Shown: in pieces, positions 3,902 through 57,755 of the stretch
How positions within the stretch are numbered: position 1 is the first letter of the stretch
Layout of the letters: every line of letters begins with the position of its first letter
From: an uncultured Anaerolineales bacterium
Lineage (GTDB): Bacteria; Chloroflexota; Anaerolineae; Anaerolineales; UBA11858
NCBI GenBank assembly: GCA_964603385.1
Contig: CAZRUS010000001.1
Span: forward strand, 12,187-76,186
DNA length: 64,000 nucleotides
Direction of reading: 5' to 3'
Notes under the pieces: generated by a model
Databases searched by the model: none
What the model saw: only the letters and a program-made list of their open reading frames with translations
What the model was told of the DNA's origin: nothing
Program-made: the position numbers and the translations under genes

Positions 3902-3930
3902 TTGCCAGATTGCGGGGAACGCACTATAAT
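3902..3930 (+). promoter_or_regulatory. sigma70-type promoter for tRNA-Pro
   Basis: TTGCCA (3902-3907), 17-nt spacer, TATAAT (3925-3930), 10 nt before the mature tRNA 5' end. Confidence 0.55.
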
Positions 3931-9962: not shown

Positions 9963-9991
9963 ATTATCACATATCGGCCGACAGTTGTCAA
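9963..9991 (-). promoter_or_regulatory. promoter-like TTGACA-17-GATAAT (function uncertain)
   Basis: Minus-strand TTGACA (9991-9986) and GATAAT (9968-9963). It lies upstream of the hairpin-T8 at 9917-9943, so the two calls conflict (see findings). Confidence 0.35.
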
Positions 9992-43659: not shown

Positions 43660-44985
43660 TTAGATTTCCTCCTCCGGGCCGATCGGCAGCATGACAAACC
43701 CTGTGATCACCTTGGGATAAAAATCAGTGGATTTTTGAGGCATTTTTTCCCCGGCCTTGGTGCAGGCCTTTACCTGTTCAATCCGGGTGGCGTTGAGGAT
43801 GAACAGGAAGGAGGTCTCTGTTTCGCTGACCTCATCATATCCCATATCCGGTTCCCGGAGATATTTGATGTTCTCCAGGTGATCGATTTTCTCCTCGCTG
43901 ATCTCCATAATTTCTTCCAGGAGAAGCTTATGCAGGATGCTCACGTCCAGCTCGCGCCAGGCCTCAACCCGATCCGGTGCCAGTTTTTCCATCACCTGGG
44001 AATCTTCCAGAGTCAGGAAATAGAACCCTTCCTGATGGACTAGTCCTATCCGGCCGACCTCTCCCAGTTCCTCTGCCATGCATTTTTCCAGTGCCTGCCG
44101 GTCTGCGACCTCTTCCACCTGGAAATATTTTCCGGCCTTTTCAAGAACAGTGTCGATGGGAAGCTGTTCGTAGTCGAAGATCAGCCGGTGGGTGGGCAGA
44201 ATGGTCAATCCCGGATTGCTCATGCTGACCATGGCGACCATCCGGTAGTTGAATCCAGCGTTATCCGGTGCCTGAGGATATTTTTCCTGCATCTCCGCCT
44301 GGTAATTGAGCGCTGTCTCGTAGCGGTGGTGGCCGTCGGCAATAATCAAATTGCGTTTGGCGGCCATCTCCTTGCTGACTGCATTGATCACCTCGGGATC
44401 GGTCACCACCCAGACCCGATGAAGAACGTCCTTCTCATGCAGTTCTTTGGCTTCAATGTCCGGCGGCCGCTGAATGGCCTCAGTGAAGATGGCATCGACC
44501 TTGTTTTCAGGATCCGGATAGAGCATAAAGATATTCCCGAAGTAGGTTTCGGTCGCCCTGGTGAGATTCAGGCGGTCCACCTTTGGACCGGCATGGGTTT
44601 TCTCATGGGGCAGGACAATCCCCTCTTCAAATTTTGCCAGTTCAAAGGCATTTATAAAGGCTTTCCGGGTGACCTTGCTGCCGTCTGGCAGGGGGAAGAT
44701 TTGATGATAGACATAATAGGCAGGCTGGTCTTCCCTGTGGAGGATGCCCTCCTCCAACCAGCGGTGCAAATACTCCCTGGCCCGGGTGTATACATTACTG
44801 GTTTCCTGGTCATCAGCATGTTCTTTCCCCTTAATGATCCGGGTGATGTTGTAATCACTCAGATCGTAGTATTGATCCTGCAGTCCATAGCGCACGCGAT
44901 CATACGGCTGGCTGATGACATTGTCAATGCTGTCAATCTTATCCTGGTTGTAGCGAATACCTCGGAATGGTTTTGTGTTGGCCAT
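43660..44985 (-). CDS. DUF1015 domain-containing protein
   Basis: N-terminal KPFRGIRYN and ADGHHRYETAL motifs characteristic of DUF1015, 441 aa. Confidence 0.8.
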   Translation of the reverse strand: MANTKPFRGIRYNQDKIDSIDNVISQPYDRVRYGLQDQYYDLSDYNITRIIKGKEHADDQETSNVYTRAREYLHRWLEEGILHREDQPAYYVYHQIFPLPDGSKVTRKAFINAFELAKFEEGIVLPHEKTHAGPKVDRLNLTRATETYFGNIFMLYPDPENKVDAIFTEAIQRPPDIEAKELHEKDVLHRVWVVTDPEVINAVSKEMAAKRNLIIADGHHRYETALNYQAEMQEKYPQAPDNAGFNYRMVAMVSMSNPGLTILPTHRLIFDYEQLPIDTVLEKAGKYFQVEEVADRQALEKCMAEELGEVGRIGLVHQEGFYFLTLEDSQVMEKLAPDRVEAWRELDVSILHKLLLEEIMEISEEKIDHLENIKYLREPDMGYDEVSETETSFLFILNATRIEQVKACTKAGEKMPQKSTDFYPKVITGFVMLPIGPEEEI

Positions 44986-47108: not shown

Positions 47109-47137
47109 TAGTATAAATTATCACAAAAAGGGTGTCA
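47109..47137 (-). promoter_or_regulatory. sigma70-type promoter of the aminotransferase-serA-DUF1015 operon
   Basis: Minus-strand TTGACA (47137-47132), 17-nt spacer, TATACT (47114-47109), about 80 nt before the start codon. Confidence 0.55.
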
Positions 47138-47240
47138 ATCAAGGGGAAAATTAAAACCCAGAAGGAGAGGGGAAGGGTGACCTTCTTCCTCACTCCGCAG
47201 TGATTTCTGTCTGACTGCTGCCGGTGTCCCGAGGTCAGGA

Positions 47241-51082: not shown

Positions 51083-51505
51083 TCATGGAGAGGTTCGCAG
51101 TGGATTGGGTCCCAGGTTCTTGATTTCTTTACTGATCTCCTCCGCTTTGGTGACAAATTCACCGGCCATAGCAGCGGAGACGTTGATCATCTGTGCGCGT
51201 GCTGGTTCAATCCCGATCTCCCCAAGAATCTCCTGCAGTCTGTTCACTCTTCTTTTTGCGTTGGTATTACCTTCCAGGTAATGGCAATCTCCGGGCAGTC
51301 AACCGGCGACCATCACCCCATCTGCTCCCTCTTCGAATGCGTGCAGGGCCAGCAGGATGTCCAGCTTGCCTGTGCAGGGGATTTCCACGATTTTGATGGT
51401 GGTGGGATACTGCAGTCTCAAGCCGCCAGCCAGGTCCGCTGCAGCATAGGCACAGTGCGTGCAGCAGTAGGACAGAATCTGTATCTTGCTGCAGTTTTCT
51501 TTCAC
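51083..51505 (-). CDS. mvhD: MvhD/FlpD-like [2Fe-2S] electron-transfer protein with in-frame TGA (51301-51299): candidate selenoprotein
   Basis: The track ORF ends ...EEGADGVMVAG-TGA. The same frame continues LPGDCHYLEGNTNAKRRV... to TGA 51085-51083, giving a 140-aa MvhD-sized protein. The TGA replaces the Cys of the GC.xGDCHY motif. The GTG start overlaps the hdrA stop (GTGA). Confidence 0.75.
51266..51282 (-). promoter_or_regulatory. candidate bacterial SECIS hairpin for mvhD
   Basis: Minus strand AUUACC-UGGAA-GGUAAU, starting 16 nt after the UGA, with G-rich apical loop. Confidence 0.35.
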
Positions 51506-54500
51506 GACGCTGTCTCCTTGCAGGGGTCTAAATAGTCAGGGACCGAGTTTTTCCACTCCTGTTGATCTGTTAATTGGGCAATTTCCTGAGCAAGCTCCGG
51601 GTGGAGCAGGGCGTGCGCTTTGGCTTGCAGCTGGAGGTCAGTGAAATGCATCAGCTCAATGGCCTTGGCCGGGCACTCCGCAGCGCAGGAGCCGCAGCCC
51701 TGGCAGACCGCGGGCTCAATATAGGCCGCGCCCTGGAGGCGGCCGATTCCAGCTGCCTCCGCCTGCATGACCGGAACTTCAAAGGGACAGATCCGCAGGC
51801 AGGTAAGACAGCCGGTGCATTTCTGCTGATCGACCTGCGCTACCCGACCGCCAGCCTTGAGGTGATCCTGACTGAGCACGATAGCTGCCCGGGAAGCCGC
51901 TGCCTGCGCCTGGATCATGCTTTCATCAAGCAGTTTTGGATAATGGGCCATCCCGGCCATGAATACGCCTTCCGTGGCAAAATCCACCGGCCGCAGCTTG
52001 ACATGGGCTTCCATGAAATACCCTTCTGCCCCCAGAGAGACTTTGAATAGGTTGGCCAGCTCCTGGCTGTCTGAGGAGGGAATCATCGGTAGTGAAAGCA
52101 CCAGCAGGTCCGCCTCAAGCTCGAGATACGAGTTCAATTTACATTCCCGGACCCGTATGGTCAGGGGCTGGGAGGGGGAGAGTCCCTCCCCCCCCTCGAG
52201 CAATTGCGGAGGGTGATCATCGTCATATCTGACGAATAACACCCCTTCCCGCCTTGCTTTGGTATAGAGCTGCTCCTTTAGACCAAAGACCCGGATATCC
52301 TTGTACAGGATGGTCACCAGAGTCTCCGGATGTTGTTGTTTTGCGGCCAGGGCATTTTTGAGAGCGGTTGTACAGCAGATCCGGCTGCAGTAGCGCTCGG
52401 CCGGGCCTATGCACTGGATCATGACCACGGATTTGAGGTCGGTGCCAGCGGGGGAAGGTTTCCGATGGGTAAGGATGGCTTCCAGGTCCTGTTGGTTGAT
52501 CACCGCGGGATGGCTGCCGTAGCCGTATTCCGCGCCTTGATACATTTCAGCCCCTGTGGCCAGGATGGTCGCCCCATGAACAATCTCCTGGTGCTTCCCG
52601 CTGGCATCTGCCGCTGTGGTGGTGAAATTCCCTTTAAACCCGGTGGTGTCAACCACCCGGGTTCCCAGATGCACGTTGATATCGGGATGATTGTCAACAT
52701 CCCTGATCAGCCGTCCCAGCACGGTTTGGGGATCCCGGTCGGTTTGAGAAAGGTAGAGCTGTCTGAGCTGTCCTCCAAGCCGATTCTCTTTTTCAATCAA
52801 ATCCACCGGGAAGCCGCTTTCAGCCAGAGTGAGGGCTGCGGTCATTCCCGCCGCGCCGCCGCCCACCACCAGGGCGGTTTTGGTGACCGGGACATCGATG
52901 GTTTTCTGCGGCTGGAGGCGGGCTGCTTTGGCAGCTGACATTCTGACCAGTTCTTTGGCTTTCTGGGTGGCTTGATCCCAATCATGGGAGTGCACCCAGG
53001 AGCATTGATTACGGATATTAGCCATTTCAAACAGGTAAGGATTGAGACTGGCGTTCCGGATGCTGTCCTGGAATAAGGGTTGATGGGTAAGCGGTGTGCA
53101 GCTGGCCACCACCACCCGGTTGAGATCTTTTTCCAACACGGTATCCGTGATGTGTTTGATACTGTCCTGCGAGCAGGTGTAAAGATTGGACTCGGCATGA
53201 ACCACATTCGGCAGGGTGCCGGCGTATTCGGTCACTTCTGGGACATCGAGGTAGCCGCCGATATTTGAGCCGCAGTGACAGATGAACACACCCACTCGAG
53301 GTTTTTGAGCACTGACATCCTTCTCCGGGGGATATTCCCGCTGCTGGGTGAGTGAAAAGCGGGCCTGACCGAGGTGGGTGCCAATGCCACCCGCTGCGCC
53401 GCTCGCTTCCATAACCGATTCCGGAATATCTTTCGGCTCCCGGAATGGTCCTGCCGCATAGATCCCTGGACGGCTGGTTTCTACGGGATTGAAGCGTACG
53501 GTGTGGCAGAATCCATATTCATCCAGCTCAATTCCCAGCTGCCTGGCCAGGGCCTGGACGCTGTCTGCGATCTCCATACCCACGGAAAGCACCACCAGAT
53601 CAAATACTTCTTCAACGGGGGCGGAGGCCCGACCGTTTTCCGGGGGACAGCGGAGAATCAGATTTCCGGTGGAAGGATCTTGTTTTATCTCGGAGATCCG
53701 ACAGTGGTGATAGTGGACCCCGTAGTGATCGCTGGCTCGCTGAAAGTATTCCAGATACCCTTTGGAAAAGGCCCGGTTGTCCATGAAAAAGATCTCGATC
53801 TCGGTTTCCGGGTAGTGGTCCCGGGTGATCAGCGCTTCCTTGGTGGCATACATGCAGCACACAGAGGAGCAGTAATCATGCTGCTGGTCCCGGGAGCCGA
53901 TGCACTGCAGAAAGGCAATCCTCCGGGGGGTTTTCTGGTCGGAAGGGCGTTCAATATGACCCATGGTAGGCCCGGAGGCGGAAAGCAGCCGTTCATACTG
54001 CAGGGAGGTGATCACATTGGGATAGCGGCCGAACCCGAATTCCTCGGAGAGCTCTGCCTGATAAGTTTGATATCCGGGAGCTAGAATGATCCCGCCAACC
54101 GGGAGGGTTCTCTCGGTGGCGACCATGTCGTGATCGATGGCATCCCGGCCGCAGGCAAAAACACAGGACATGCATTCGGAGCATATGCCGCAGGCCAGAC
54201 AGCGGGCCGCCTCGGCACGAGCGCTTTCCTCGTCATACCCGGATTCCACTTCGGCGAAATTGTTGACCCGCTGGGAGACATCCAGCTCCGGCATAGGCAC
54301 CCGCGGTTGAGGGCTGATCTCCCCGCGAGCCTGACGTTCTTGAATTTCCTGCTCGGAGAGTTCAACCACCGGCAGGGGAGGTTTCCGGGGAGGCTCGAGG
54401 TGTTTCCCCTCCAGGTAGCGCTGCATGGAACGGGCAGCGGTGTGTCCGCTGGCAACGGATTCAATCACAAAAGCTGTTCCAGAAACGCTGTCGCCGGCGG

Positions 54501-56130
54501 CAAATACCCCCTCTCTGGTAGCAGCCAGAGTGTTGGGATTGATAGCAATGGTTTGTTGATCCGTGACCCCCACCCCGGCATCATCGGGGATAAAGGCCAG
54601 GCCGGCGCGCTGACCGACAGAGAAAATCACCGTATCGCAGGGAATTTCATGCTGGGACTCAGGTATTTTTTCAACATGCAATCCCCCACTTTCATTGAAG
54701 CTGAAGCGGGCAACTTTCTGCAGCTCCATTCCCCGCACCCGGCCGTTGCCGTCTCCCAGGATGCGTTCGAAGGATCGACCAGGATGAAGGATGACTCCTT
54801 CCTGCTCGGCGGCTTCGATCTCCCAGTCATGGGCCGGCATTTCTTCCCGGTTTTCCAGGCAGGCCAGATGGACTGTCTTCCCCAGCCGAACCGCCGTCCG
54901 GGCACAGTCAATGGCCACATTGCCGCCGCCCAGCACCAGCACGCGCTCTCCCAGCGGAAGACCCTGATCACTGGCCCGGTCGCTGTATTTCCCCAGCCGG
55001 ACATCCCGCAGGAAACGCGTGTTGATGATGACACCATCCAGCTGGGAACCGGGAATGGGCAGGCGAACCCCCTCGTGGGCACCCACGGCGATGAGCACCG
55101 CCTGGAACCCCTGCTCGAAGAGTTCATCGAGATCATCCACTCGATGATTGAGCCGCAGATCCACGCCGAGATCAATAATGTCCTGCACCTCACGTTCGAT
55201 GATCTCTGTGGGCAGGCGGTATTCCGGGACCCCCAGCCGGAGCATCCCGCCGGCAACCGGCATGGCTTCGAAGACGCTGACCGGATAGCCAGCAAGAATC
55301 AAATCCTGCGCAGCGGTCAGGCCGCAGGGTCCGGCGCCGATGATGGCGGCCTTTTGTTCAGGAAAATGAATTTCTGCCGGTTCAACAGGGTCTCTGGGGG
55401 TCTCGTAGACTTTGTCGGTCACAAACCGTTTCAAGGCCCGGATGTTGATGGGTTCATCAAATTTCCCGCGGTTGCAGGCATCTTCGCAACGGTGGTTGCA
55501 GATCCGACCGCAGATTCCCGGGAAGGGATTGTCCATCTTGATCACCCGCAGGGCGTCCTCCCAGCGGCCTTCTCGGATCAGGGCGATGTAGCCCTGGGCG
55601 CGCTGTCCGGCAGGACAGGCATCCCGGCAGGGAGCAATGCCAGCTTTTTGAATCGCAAAGGCATTGGGAACCGCTTGAGGATACTGTTTGTAGACCGCAT
55701 GGCGGGTAGAAAGGCCCTCGTTAAAAATGTCCGGGATGATCACCGGGCAGACCTCAACGCAGTCGTTGCAGGCAACGCAGGCATCGACGTTCACGTAGCG
55801 GGGCTGCTGCTGGACCCGGACGGAAAAGTTGCCCACCGAACCGGAGACATCCAGGACTTCAGCATTGGTGATCAATTCGATATTGGGATGCCGACCGGTT
55901 TCTACCAATTTGGGAGAGATTGTACACATGGCGCAATCATTGGTTGGAAAGGTCTTATCCAGCTGGGCCATTTTCCCCCCGATGGCGGATTGTTTTTCAA
56001 CCAGATAGACTTTGTAGCCCTGATCTGCCAGATCGAGGGAGGCCTGCATCCCGGCAATTCCCCCTCCCACAACCATAGCGGCGCCGATCACATCGTGTGG
56101 ATTCACTTCTTGATGCCTTGAAGTCGACAT
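51502..56130 (-). CDS. hdrA: giant HdrA-like flavoprotein with inserted NfnB/GltD-like NAD(P)H module and a second HdrA-like module (HdrL-type)
   Basis: GGGIAGMQASLDLA FAD fold. GltD-like region (AIIGAGPCGLTAA, VLVLGGGNVAIDCA, AAGD). HdrA cluster signature CIGSRD...YCSSVCCMYA. Second module VVGGGAAGMTAAL...CIGPAERYCSRICC. Several CxxCxxCxxxCP motifs. Start set at ATG 56130 behind RBS GAGGGAG (track GTG 56154). Confidence 0.85.
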   Translation of the reverse strand: MSTSRHQEVNPHDVIGAAMVVGGGIAGMQASLDLADQGYKVYLVEKQSAIGGKMAQLDKTFPTNDCAMCTISPKLVETGRHPNIELITNAEVLDVSGSVGNFSVRVQQQPRYVNVDACVACNDCVEVCPVIIPDIFNEGLSTRHAVYKQYPQAVPNAFAIQKAGIAPCRDACPAGQRAQGYIALIREGRWEDALRVIKMDNPFPGICGRICNHRCEDACNRGKFDEPINIRALKRFVTDKVYETPRDPVEPAEIHFPEQKAAIIGAGPCGLTAAQDLILAGYPVSVFEAMPVAGGMLRLGVPEYRLPTEIIEREVQDIIDLGVDLRLNHRVDDLDELFEQGFQAVLIAVGAHEGVRLPIPGSQLDGVIINTRFLRDVRLGKYSDRASDQGLPLGERVLVLGGGNVAIDCARTAVRLGKTVHLACLENREEMPAHDWEIEAAEQEGVILHPGRSFERILGDGNGRVRGMELQKVARFSFNESGGLHVEKIPESQHEIPCDTVIFSVGQRAGLAFIPDDAGVGVTDQQTIAINPNTLAATREGVFAAGDSVSGTAFVIESVASGHTAARSMQRYLEGKHLEPPRKPPLPVVELSEQEIQERQARGEISPQPRVPMPELDVSQRVNNFAEVESGYDEESARAEAARCLACGICSECMSCVFACGRDAIDHDMVATERTLPVGGIILAPGYQTYQAELSEEFGFGRYPNVITSLQYERLLSASGPTMGHIERPSDQKTPRRIAFLQCIGSRDQQHDYCSSVCCMYATKEALITRDHYPETEIEIFFMDNRAFSKGYLEYFQRASDHYGVHYHHCRISEIKQDPSTGNLILRCPPENGRASAPVEEVFDLVVLSVGMEIADSVQALARQLGIELDEYGFCHTVRFNPVETSRPGIYAAGPFREPKDIPESVMEASGAAGGIGTHLGQARFSLTQQREYPPEKDVSAQKPRVGVFICHCGSNIGGYLDVPEVTEYAGTLPNVVHAESNLYTCSQDSIKHITDTVLEKDLNRVVVASCTPLTHQPLFQDSIRNASLNPYLFEMANIRNQCSWVHSHDWDQATQKAKELVRMSAAKAARLQPQKTIDVPVTKTALVVGGGAAGMTAALTLAESGFPVDLIEKENRLGGQLRQLYLSQTDRDPQTVLGRLIRDVDNHPDINVHLGTRVVDTTGFKGNFTTTAADASGKHQEIVHGATILATGAEMYQGAEYGYGSHPAVINQQDLEAILTHRKPSPAGTDLKSVVMIQCIGPAERYCSRICCTTALKNALAAKQQHPETLVTILYKDIRVFGLKEQLYTKARREGVLFVRYDDDHPPQLLEGGEGLSPSQPLTIRVRECKLNSYLELEADLLVLSLPMIPSSDSQELANLFKVSLGAEGYFMEAHVKLRPVDFATEGVFMAGMAHYPKLLDESMIQAQAAASRAAIVLSQDHLKAGGRVAQVDQQKCTGCLTCLRICPFEVPVMQAEAAGIGRLQGAAYIEPAVCQGCGSCAAECPAKAIELMHFTDLQLQAKAHALLHPELAQEIAQLTDQQEWKNSVPDYLDPCKETAS

Positions 56131-56226
56131 TGTCGTTTCTCCCTCAAACACCAATAGAAATTACTGACTGCTGCAGGAAGGCGTCAACGATGCGCTGATA
56201 AATCCACCATTCAAAGCTGAAGAAAG

Positions 56227-56259
56227 AACCGCCCATCTGCCTGAACAGCATGGGCGGTT
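56227..56259 (-). terminator. terminator/attenuator-like hairpin inside the hdrA leader
   Basis: Minus strand AACCGCCCAT-(13-nt loop)-ATGGGCGGTT followed by CTTTCTTC. It lies about 100 nt upstream of the hdrA ATG. Confidence 0.35.
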
Positions 56260-56463
56260 TGAGTGCAGTGAAAGAGAAACCGGACCAGCCAGCAGGTGGT
56301 GTGGACGAATATTGTTTATTAATGACACAGCCGCCCAGGCTCAGGGACTGAGGGGCGGCAGCGTTGAAATATTCGTGGCCCTTTGAACCTGTGGGGGGAC
56401 CGCAGGTTCAGTATTTCATTTCTTCTTGAAGCACATTGTATTTGAACTGCGATGTTGACTGTA

Positions 56464-56492
56464 TTGTAGCAAGGTGGGATACCCTTGTCAAT
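56464..56492 (-). promoter_or_regulatory. near-consensus sigma70 promoter upstream of the hdrA-mvhD-metVF-hdrCB string
   Basis: Minus-strand TTGACA (56492-56487), 17-nt spacer, TACAAT (56469-56464). Confidence 0.6.
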
Positions 56493-56690
56493 CACCTGTC
56501 TAGACAAATAGCGGTTATCTATTTGGGCTGGGCAGGCTTCTGTCCATTTTTCAGGAAAAACGGAGAAAATTCCCCTGCCCGCTGAAAAGCAAAGCTGATT
56601 TTCTGGCGCTTGAAGGGTGGGTTCTCCCCCTGAAACAGCCTTCATGAGGAGGGGCGGGAAGCTTTGTGGGACTGTTAAGCTGTGAGCGAA

Positions 56691-57755
56691 TCAGCAAATT
56701 CTGGGAAGTAATTCGCCGGCCAGGGTGTCCACGATCCTGGTGGAGCCCAGTGCTGTTTTCAACAGCAGTCTTCCCCGGGGGGAGTCCTTCACCCGGCCGA
56801 TGACAGCCGCATTTTCCCCGTAGCGTGTCTGCTGCATGACGGCCAGCACCCGGTCGGCATCTTCCTCTGCCACCACGGCGAGGAGCTTGCCCTCATTGGC
56901 GATGTAAAGCGGATCGAAGCCCAGCATCTCGCAGGCTGCCGCGACTTCCGGTTTGACGGGCAGACGCCCTTCTTCCAGCAGGATGCCAACCTGAGATTGG
57001 CGGGCGATTTCGTTCAGGGCGGTTGCTACCCCGCCCCGGGTGGGATCACGCAGGACATGGATCTGGTCGCTGGCCTCCAGCATGGCTGCCACCAGGTGGT
57101 TAAGCGGAGCGACATCACTTTCCAGGGAGGTCTGGAATCCCAGCTCTCCCCGGGCTTCCAGCACGGCGATGCCGTGATCTCCCATGGTTCCGGAGAGGAT
57201 GACCACATCCCCCGGCTGCGCCTGCGCTCCGCCGATCTCTGCACCCCGTTTCAACCAGCCCACCCCGCTGGTGGAGATATACATGCCGTCCGCCTCGCCG
57301 TGGGCGACCACTTTGGTATCCCCGCTGATCACCTCCACTCCGGCTTCTTCCGCTGCTGCCTGCATGGACTGCACCACCTGCTTAAGCTGCTTCATCTGCA
57401 AGCCTTCTTCCAGGATAAAGCTGGCGGTAAGAAAGCGGGGTTTTGCTCCCACCATGGCCACGTCATTGACTGTGCCGCATACGGCCAGCCGGCCAATATC
57501 GCCGCCCGGAAAGAACAGGGGCGAGACCACATGAGCATCCGTGCTCACGGCCAGAGAACTGCCATCCGGCAGGGGGACCACGCCGGCGTCGTTGCCAGCC
57601 AGCAGTGCAGAATTGGCCAGCGGAGGGTGAAAGGTGCCTTGGATGAGATCCCCCATCATTTTCCCTCCGCTCCCATGTCCGAGAACGATTTTTTGGTCAT
57701 GCTGCCGGGGGAGTGGGCAGGCAGCGCCTTCCAGCGAGATTTCTTTTTCACTCAT
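56691..57755 (-). CDS. hypE: hydrogenase maturation protein HypE
   Basis: AIR-synthase-like fold (GHGSGG...) and the diagnostic C-terminal ...PRIC. Confidence 0.9.

Follow-up and report, generated by a model that had tools for sequence, protein, structure and literature searches.

A conserved, structured 5′ leader upstream of the hdrA–flpD–metV–metF–hdrCB operon of an uncultured Anaerolineales bacterium

The 64-kb stretch of DNA analysed here is called the window throughout. On its minus strand the genes hypB-F-C-D-E (62346-56691) are followed by a 560-nt intergenic region and then by an HdrA-type gene, with flpD/mvhD, metV, metF and an HdrCB-like gene beyond it (Table 1). The region 56155-56492 is the promoter and ~330-nt 5′ leader of this hdrA–flpD–metV–metF–hdrCB operon. 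In anaerobes, Hdr–MvhD–MetVF complexes reduce methylene-THF as a step of the Wood–Ljungdahl pathway. The HdrA protein of the window falls in Anaerolineae (Chloroflexota), its best species-representative matches being about 70% identical. It is a fusion with the layout HdrA N-terminus, Fer4_20, Pyr_redox_2 (GltD-like), second HdrA-type FAD domain and C-terminal 2x[4Fe-4S], and this 1542-aa form is common across Anaerolineae and also present in MAGs labelled Proteobacteria and Thermodesulfobacteriota.

Two other features of the neighbourhood were seen. A small terminator-like hairpin (GGGGAATTTTCTCC and GTTTTTCC, 56555-56575, minus strand) lies upstream of the hdrA promoter, about 115 nt past the hypE stop, and is likely the end of the hyp operon. 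The flpD/mvhD gene is a single reading frame with one in-frame TGA at 51301-51299 (GVMVAG-TGA-LPGDCHYLEGN), at what we take to be the conserved Cys position of the family; judged from its sequence, it probably encodes a selenocysteine-containing MvhD rather than being a pseudogene. A possible SECIS-like hairpin, ATTACC-TGGAA-GGTAAT, lies about 17 nt downstream of the TGA.

Table 1. Positions of the operon genes and leader features in the window
Feature	Position	Strand	Details
hdrA-type gene	51502..56130	-	1542-aa flavoprotein with inserted GltD-like NAD(P)H module; Pfam
flpD/mvhD	51505-51083	-	3′ of hdrA; Pfam
metV (DUF5981)	51028-50345	-	Pfam
metF (MTHFR)	50327-49308	-	Pfam
HdrCB-like gene (CCG/Fer4)	49386-47845	-	Pfam
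Sigma-70-type promoter P1	56463..56491	-	-35 TTGACA 56491-56486; 17-nt spacer; TG-extended -10 TACAAT 56468-56463
Hairpin 1 (H1)	56383..56411	-	CTGAACCTG / CAGGTTCA(A), 11-nt loop
AGGGCC box, conserved single-stranded	56377..56382	-	Directly 3′ of H1; alignments
Composite Hairpin 2 (H2)	56305..56376	-	Closing helix ACGAATATT 56376-56368 / AATATTCGT 56313-56305
Pyrimidine-rich anti-Shine-Dalgarno segment GUUUCUCUUUCA	56269..56280	-	Complementary to UGAGGGAGAAAC 56146-56135
Hairpin 3 (H3) and tail	56217..56259	-	AACCGCCCAT 56259-56250 / ATGGGCGGTT 56236-56227; tail CUUUCUUC(AG)
Weak candidate proximal promoter P2	56158..56187	-	TTGACG-18-TAATTT, 8/12, under scan threshold, read by eye
Ribosome-binding region and hdrA start	56128..56146	-	GGGAG Shine-Dalgarno 56143-56139; ATG 56130-56128

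The leader promoter, P1, matches the consensus at 11 of 12 positions and carries the TG extension, and its predicted transcription start is near 56457. An earlier reading of the letters without database searches (the sequence-only reading) had reported TTGACA-17-TACAAT at 56492-56464; sequence and spacing are as it described them, but the position is one base off. Its estimate that the hdrA ATG lies about 330 nt downstream agrees with the 332 nt measured from the -10 hexamer. Sites of the form TTGACA-N17-TATAAT with one mismatch or fewer occur five times in the window, where 0.11 would be expected: 3902-3930(+), 9963-9991(-), 44899-44927(-), 47110-47138(-) and 56463-56491(-), the last being P1 itself. 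The site at 47138-47110 is just upstream of aminotransferase, hydroxyacid dehydrogenase and DUF1015 genes; the hdr–metVF operon probably ends there.

The 341-nt transcript has a minimum free energy (MFE) of -116.7 kcal/mol, compared with -94.3 +/- 5.3 in dinucleotide shuffles (z = -4.25), and none of 100 shuffles equalled it. Three strong hairpins had been proposed for this transcript, and direct reading of the sequence and an inverted-repeat search located all of them at the positions given; H1, composite H2 and H3 are present in both the MFE and the centroid structures. The arms of H1 are GAACCTG (56409-56403) and CAGGTTC (56391-56385). The region of the AGGGCC box that follows (GGTTCARAGGGCC) occurs exactly once in the window. 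The interior of H2 has GCCGCCC (56359-56353) and GGGCGGC (56336-56330) as its conserved base and CTCAG/CTGAG at the top. Hairpins of the type CCGCCC-N-GGGCGG number three in the window against 0.61 expected, and two of the three are in the hdrA leader. Read on the plus strand, H1 (56383-56411) is flagged as terminator-like, with 12 pairs and the tail TATTTCATTT. This tail derives from an A-rich tract 5′ of H1 that is present in the window and in three related leaders described below (L009, L112 and L034); no antisense promoter to serve such a terminator was found in the window.

H3 has the make-up of an intrinsic terminator in the window, with a perfect 10-bp stem and the tail UUCUUUCUUC, placed between promoter and start codon; CTTTCTTC is directly 3′ of it. 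The anti-Shine-Dalgarno helix (12 nt, 83%) is likewise part of the MFE and centroid structures, and the mean probability of being unpaired is 0.30 for the Shine-Dalgarno region. An alternative helix can be drawn between the 3′ strand of H2 (56341-56331) and the 5′ strand of H3 (56257-56247), pairing 10 of 11 bp. Forcing this antiterminator fold gives -68.2 versus -83.4 for the fold with H2 and H3, that is, 15 kcal/mol worse, so that the predicted default state is terminator-on. Beyond the shared GGGCGG/CCGCCC core, the alternative helix is not kept in L034.

Conservation in relatives, which the sequence-only reading had made a test of its proposal, was found: the same promoter, H1 and H2 stand upstream of hdrA-type genes in other Anaerolineae. 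A search by nhmmer with the window intergenic region returned locus L034 (E = 5.7e-9), the homology beginning exactly at the -35 hexamer and ending just past H3. A two-sequence profile returned L009 (nhmmer E = 6e-11), and the look-up of a 79%-identical HdrA fragment led to the L138 leader (nhmmer 1e-15), which a covariance model built without it scores at 61.9 bits (E = 1.5e-11). Covariance model R1 finds the five close members and, with filters off, L138 as well. The metagenome-wide pattern GGTTCARARRGCC-N-CCGCCC-N-GGGCGG gave 56 matches, of which three were real, namely L124, close to L034, and L112 and L121, relatives of L009 and L012 respectively; the rest were discarded as coding or GC-rich chance matches. 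These three are no independent evidence for conservation of the arms, since the arms were used to find them. In a protein scan of the genome collection the leader was present at 3 of the 80 hdrA loci returned (L034, L009 and, distantly, L012), and eleven contig look-ups of close HdrA fragments added only L138. Loci L019 and L021 share just an H2-type hairpin. The other HdrA loci looked up have no leader; there hdrA follows flpD or hdrBC inside an operon, or has unrelated upstream DNA.

The family has eight members, made up of the window, L138, L034/L124, L009/L112 and the distant pair L012/L121. All eight carry a perfect TTGACA, a 17-nt spacer and TAnAAT, with 262-332 nt from the -10 hexamer to the ATG, and all eight lie on the same strand as, and directly upstream of, an hdrA-type gene. 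The core (start of H1) is 73-78 nt past the -10 hexamer in the four close lineages. HdrA proteins of the leader-bearing loci are 60-79% identical to that of the window, and the upstream neighbours vary (hypE, an NTP-transferase gene, a CBS gene on the opposite strand, an ADP-ribosylglycohydrolase gene). These varied neighbours, together with the lack of a leader where hdrA is internal to an operon, indicate that the element travels with the start of the hdr operon. A repeat element was ruled out, as there is one copy in 64 kb.

The L012 and L121 leaders precede a different HdrA paralogue (1075 aa), the first gene of an hdrA–flpD–hdrA operon. Their nhmmer E-values are about 1e-3 to 2.5e-2, and because L012 scores only 14.1 bits (E = 0.67) in covariance model R1, the membership of this pair rests on nhmmer and on the blocks shared with the close leaders, which are GTTCAAATA, GGTTCAGAAGGCC and the H2 base. 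Both have an extra 5′ hairpin, ACTGGTAGCC…GAGGGCCAACCAGT, with a second copy of a GAGGGCC box (L012:897-975, L121:7175-7230). Next comes GTTCAAATA, a block that the window and L034 leaders also have close to their 5′ ends.

Across the family, conservation extends over the promoter, a purine-rich stretch, the H1 arms CTGAACC/GGTTCAG, the AGGGCC box (AGGGCC, AGAGCC, AAGGCC or AGGGCA in relatives), a 16-24-nt linker and the H2 base GCCGCCC/GGGCGGC. The H2 top (10-17 nt) varies, as does nearly everything 3′ of H2. Between its conserved 7-nt arms H1 has loops of 13-17 nt (15 nt in the window), the sequences of which are unrelated among members. Indels and substitutions are confined to the loops, the arms being near-invariant, and only about six unpaired positions are invariant. 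RNAfold places H1 and H2 in the MFE structure of all five close members, H1 being weak in L034 and L012 (-4 kcal/mol). The leader feature is real, non-random and conserved by selection.

Covariation, the other sign looked for in the hairpins, was not seen in H1 or H2 among the six sequences compared, which are few and similar; 253 of 500 shuffles do as well. A pair count over the six gave 96% of cells paired, with 11 of 14 pairs never varying and one pair with a double change. The outermost H2 pair is G-C, G-U or A-U depending on the member, and in H1 each change affects one side only and disrupts the pair (C·A in the window, A·G in L034 and A·C in L012). Since the stems are almost invariant, covariation is uninformative and speaks neither for nor against the helices. 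Compared with shuffled loops, the variable tops of the hairpins show greater self-complementarity (p ~0.02-0.03 per hairpin when independent lineages are combined by Fisher's method). Several further pairings were considered and rejected. RNAalifold predicted a long-range helix in which GGGCC pairs with a GGYYY some 100 nt downstream; this helix is disrupted in L112 and L138. By eye, no conservation was seen for an antiterminator between the AGGGC box and GCCCU of H2, pseudoknots between the H1 loop and the linker, pairing of the 5′ arm of H1 with an upstream copy of GUUCA, or a small ORF initiated by ATGGGCGG.

The part of the leader 3′ of H2 differs between members. H3 had been described as terminator-like and about 100 nt before the ATG, which is true of the window, with its stem and U-rich tail, but not of the family, where H3 is kept only in L034. 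The homologue there (L034:2845-2882, ACCGCCT…AGGCGGT) has the tail GCTGTTTTTT, its U-rich tail also being given as GCUGUUUUUU, and differs from the window hairpin by one compensatory change, C-G to T-A (CCGCCC/GGGCGG to CCGCCT/AGGCGG). H3 is absent in L138 and a degenerate relic, GGTGGTTCT, in L009/L112. A U-rich tail directly after H2 is present in L034 (TCTTTTTA), L009 (TATTTTAA) and L012 (TTGGTTTA), and absent from the window, L138, L112 and L121. The H2 base helix of the window is homologous to the U-tailed hairpin of L034, L009 and L012. No single expression platform is thus conserved, given the absence or decay of H3 in relatives and the presence of an H2 tail in some members only. The ancestral layout is likely a terminator-like H2 about 130 nt past the start; in the window lineage H3, with its repeat of the CCGCCC/GGGCGG core, has apparently taken over the terminator role. 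Nearer the gene, an anti-Shine-Dalgarno-like pyrimidine segment was found among the relatives in L138 only, which also keeps the block TATTGGTG..AGGGAGAA..CAATGTCGA at the hdrA start region.

We tentatively favour a reading in which the leader acts in cis as an attenuating RNA for the hdrA–metVF operon, together with a putative trans factor. Transcription would start at P1, ~330 nt upstream of the ATG, and the transcript would carry the module of H1, AGGGCC box and H2, followed in the window by the terminator-like H3 and the anti-Shine-Dalgarno segment. The RNA alone would fold into H1, H2 and H3 and be OFF by default; with such a default fold, most transcripts should stop near 56220 or have their ribosome site masked. 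Read-through would require a factor acting on the H1/box/H2 module and freeing the 3′ strand of H2, which could then pair with the 5′ strand of H3 as an antiterminator. Conservation in stems and not in junctions makes a protein a more likely factor than a metabolite. The stem sequences may be held constant by sequence-specific recognition or because they have a part in more than one pairing. Several points weigh against attenuation. The family is tiny (three real among the 56 metagenome matches, 3 of 80 genome loci), few unpaired nucleotides are conserved that might point to a ligand pocket, no covariation was seen in H1 or H2, the expression platform varies between members, the forced antiterminator fold is 15 kcal/mol worse than the terminator fold, H1 is weak in L034 and L012, and P2 could make hdrA of the window independent of the leader. 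The sequence-only reading had proposed either a cis-attenuator or an sRNA; a long structured leader conserved upstream of hdrA stands, while a terminator at H3 shared beyond L034 and support from covariation do not.

An independent sRNA, ~130-240 nt long, made from the strong promoter, ending at H2 or H3 and acting in trans, with hdrA read from a proximal promoter, appears unlikely to us. The near-consensus promoter followed about 240 nt downstream by a stable, U-tailed, terminator-like hairpin would suit it, as would the two such hairpins with good tails in L034 and a default fold that favours termination; an own promoter together with an own terminator was found in the window and L034 only, and H3 is not kept in L138 or L009. 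Its proximal promoter could be the weak P2 (56187-56158), with a TATAAT at the homologous place in L138, and through this candidate the window hdrA might also be transcribed independently of the leader. In L034 and L009, however, neither a P2-like nor any other promoter-like site was found between the leader hairpins and the ATG, so that hdrA must there be read from P1. Nor is the element independent of its position: all eight copies are co-oriented with and adjoin an hdrA-type gene despite differing upstream neighbours, and the distance to the ATG is conserved. The hairpins could also belong to a long 5′ UTR with no regulatory role, conserved by descent along with the promoter, that stabilises or processes the mRNA or insulates it from the hyp operon. 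The lack of covariation and of a conserved expression platform fits this, and so do the small terminator-like hairpin with which the hyp operon likely ends just upstream and the terminator-like opposite strand of H1 (tail TATTTCATTT), which could block antisense transcription. Against it, the arms are perfectly conserved and the loops scrambled across lineages with proteins 60-79% identical, a pattern that implies a sequence-specific constraint beyond mere hairpin formation; a stabilising hairpin would moreover be expected at the extreme 5′ end and not at +50 to +150. We hold such a passive UTR to be unlikely too.

A new class of metabolite-binding riboswitch, with H1, box, linker and H2 as the aptamer for a redox or C1 metabolite and H2 or H3 as the expression platform, would account for the link between a single metabolic operon and a leader that is long, conserved and structured, for a terminator with alternative pairing and for the lack of any matching known family. 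From the sequences compared, it is nonetheless distinctly unlikely, as conservation is in the stems and not the junctions, with ~6 invariant unpaired positions; no covariation was seen, the H1 loop is large and unconserved (13-17 nt), H1 is weak in some members and the distribution is very narrow. Invariant repeat arms with unconserved spacers would also be expected of operator half-sites, and TGAACC…GGTTCA and GCCGCCC…GGGCGGC might be DNA sites at which transcription factors block elongation from the promoter; a Rex-box-like TTGTGATTTACTTCACA does occur in the L012 and L121 leaders. The window leader, however, has no Rex box, two factors would be needed for the two different palindromes, and at +50 to +130 these are a long way from the promoter. 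Spacers of 13, 15 or 17 bp in H1 and 10-17 bp in H2 would rotate the half-sites, the G·T pair of L034 works in RNA only, and the variable tops keep extra complementarity. Taken together, indels restricted to the loops, spacers varying by ±2, the G·U pair of L034 and the self-complementary tops favour RNA hairpins over DNA operators, which we regard as very unlikely.

A conserved leader would offer a testable handle on how uncultured Anaerolineae switch the energy-conserving Hdr–MetVF module, and would be a candidate for a search for ligands or protein partners. It would be a long shot, judging by these sequences, for H1–AGGGCC–H2 to be either an aptamer that represents a riboswitch class not yet described or the place where an equally undescribed RNA-binding regulator docks, and in that role to report redox or C1-carrier state and gate the Hdr–MetVF operon. 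If true, the signal could be, for example, NADH/NAD+ or methylene-/methyl-THF, and the target would be the electron-bifurcating methylene-THF reductase operon (Hdr–MetVF) of Anaerolineae. With few members, a restricted set of lineages and a mechanism that is proposed only, the family is at present a well-delimited orphan candidate, not a discovery.

The THF-I, THF-II/folE, SAM, SAH, cobalamin and ZTP riboswitches control folate and methionine genes, and the hdrA leader resembles them in being a structured leader upstream of a metF/metV (C1 metabolism) operon. It differs in that none of their models matches at E <= 10 on the window leader or on four homologous leaders. When 55900-56900 was scanned against Rfam 15 at E up to 10, the hits were all at chance level (13-17 bits; snoRNA, miRNA and Xoo2 models), and none of the families, THF, THF-II, SAM-I to VI, SAH, cobalamin, ZTP, NAD+ and T-box included, reached its gathering threshold. 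No consistent match came from the leaders of L138, L124, L112, L009, L034 and L012. The statement in the sequence-only reading that the leader could not be matched to the THF, ZTP, cobalamin or SAM riboswitches is thereby upheld. A full-text literature search returned nothing relevant on a cis-regulatory RNA for Hdr–MetVF operons. As far as the sequences go, the hdrA leader belongs to no described RNA family and is probably a regulatory RNA.

Two other kinds of leader were set aside. Six-frame peptides of 56100-56700 had no significant match in homologous leaders, and each lineage has different short ORFs near H1; with no conserved short ORF, leader-peptide attenuation of the trp type was ruled out. 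ANTAR targets have two short hairpins with hexanucleotide loops, and were rejected on the H1 loops of 13-17 nt and the H2 tops of 10-17 nt with internal pairing.

Rex is an NADH/NAD+-sensing repressor of redox operons with the operator consensus TTGTGA-N6-TCACAA. The likeness to Rex systems is that Hdr-type redox enzymes are regulated and that L012 and L121 carry a Rex-like TTGTGA-N6-TCACA, the palindrome TTGTGATTTACTTCACA(G/A) lying inside their leaders just 5′ of the H1-like element (L012:1026-1043, L121:7282-7299). This suggests possible NADH/NAD+-dependent control of their hdr operons, and hints at redox state as the relevant signal for hdr operons. The differences are that no Rex box with up to two mismatches was found in 56100-56700 and that the H1 and H2 arms are unlike the Rex consensus.

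Closest to the attenuating-leader reading are the known transcription-attenuating leaders that alternate between terminator and antiterminator (riboswitch platforms; protein-dependent attenuators such as those of PyrR and BglG/RAT). As in those systems, a long untranslated stretch follows a strong promoter, the element is tied to one operon, a GC-rich, U-tailed hairpin lies about 100 nt before the ATG, and a candidate alternative helix uses one strand of the terminator. It differs in having no Rfam match, no conserved leader peptide and a terminator that is not family-wide, and in that its conserved part consists of two hairpins with invariant stems and free loops. Among structured regulatory 5′ leaders it is a rare, lineage-restricted and unclassified family.
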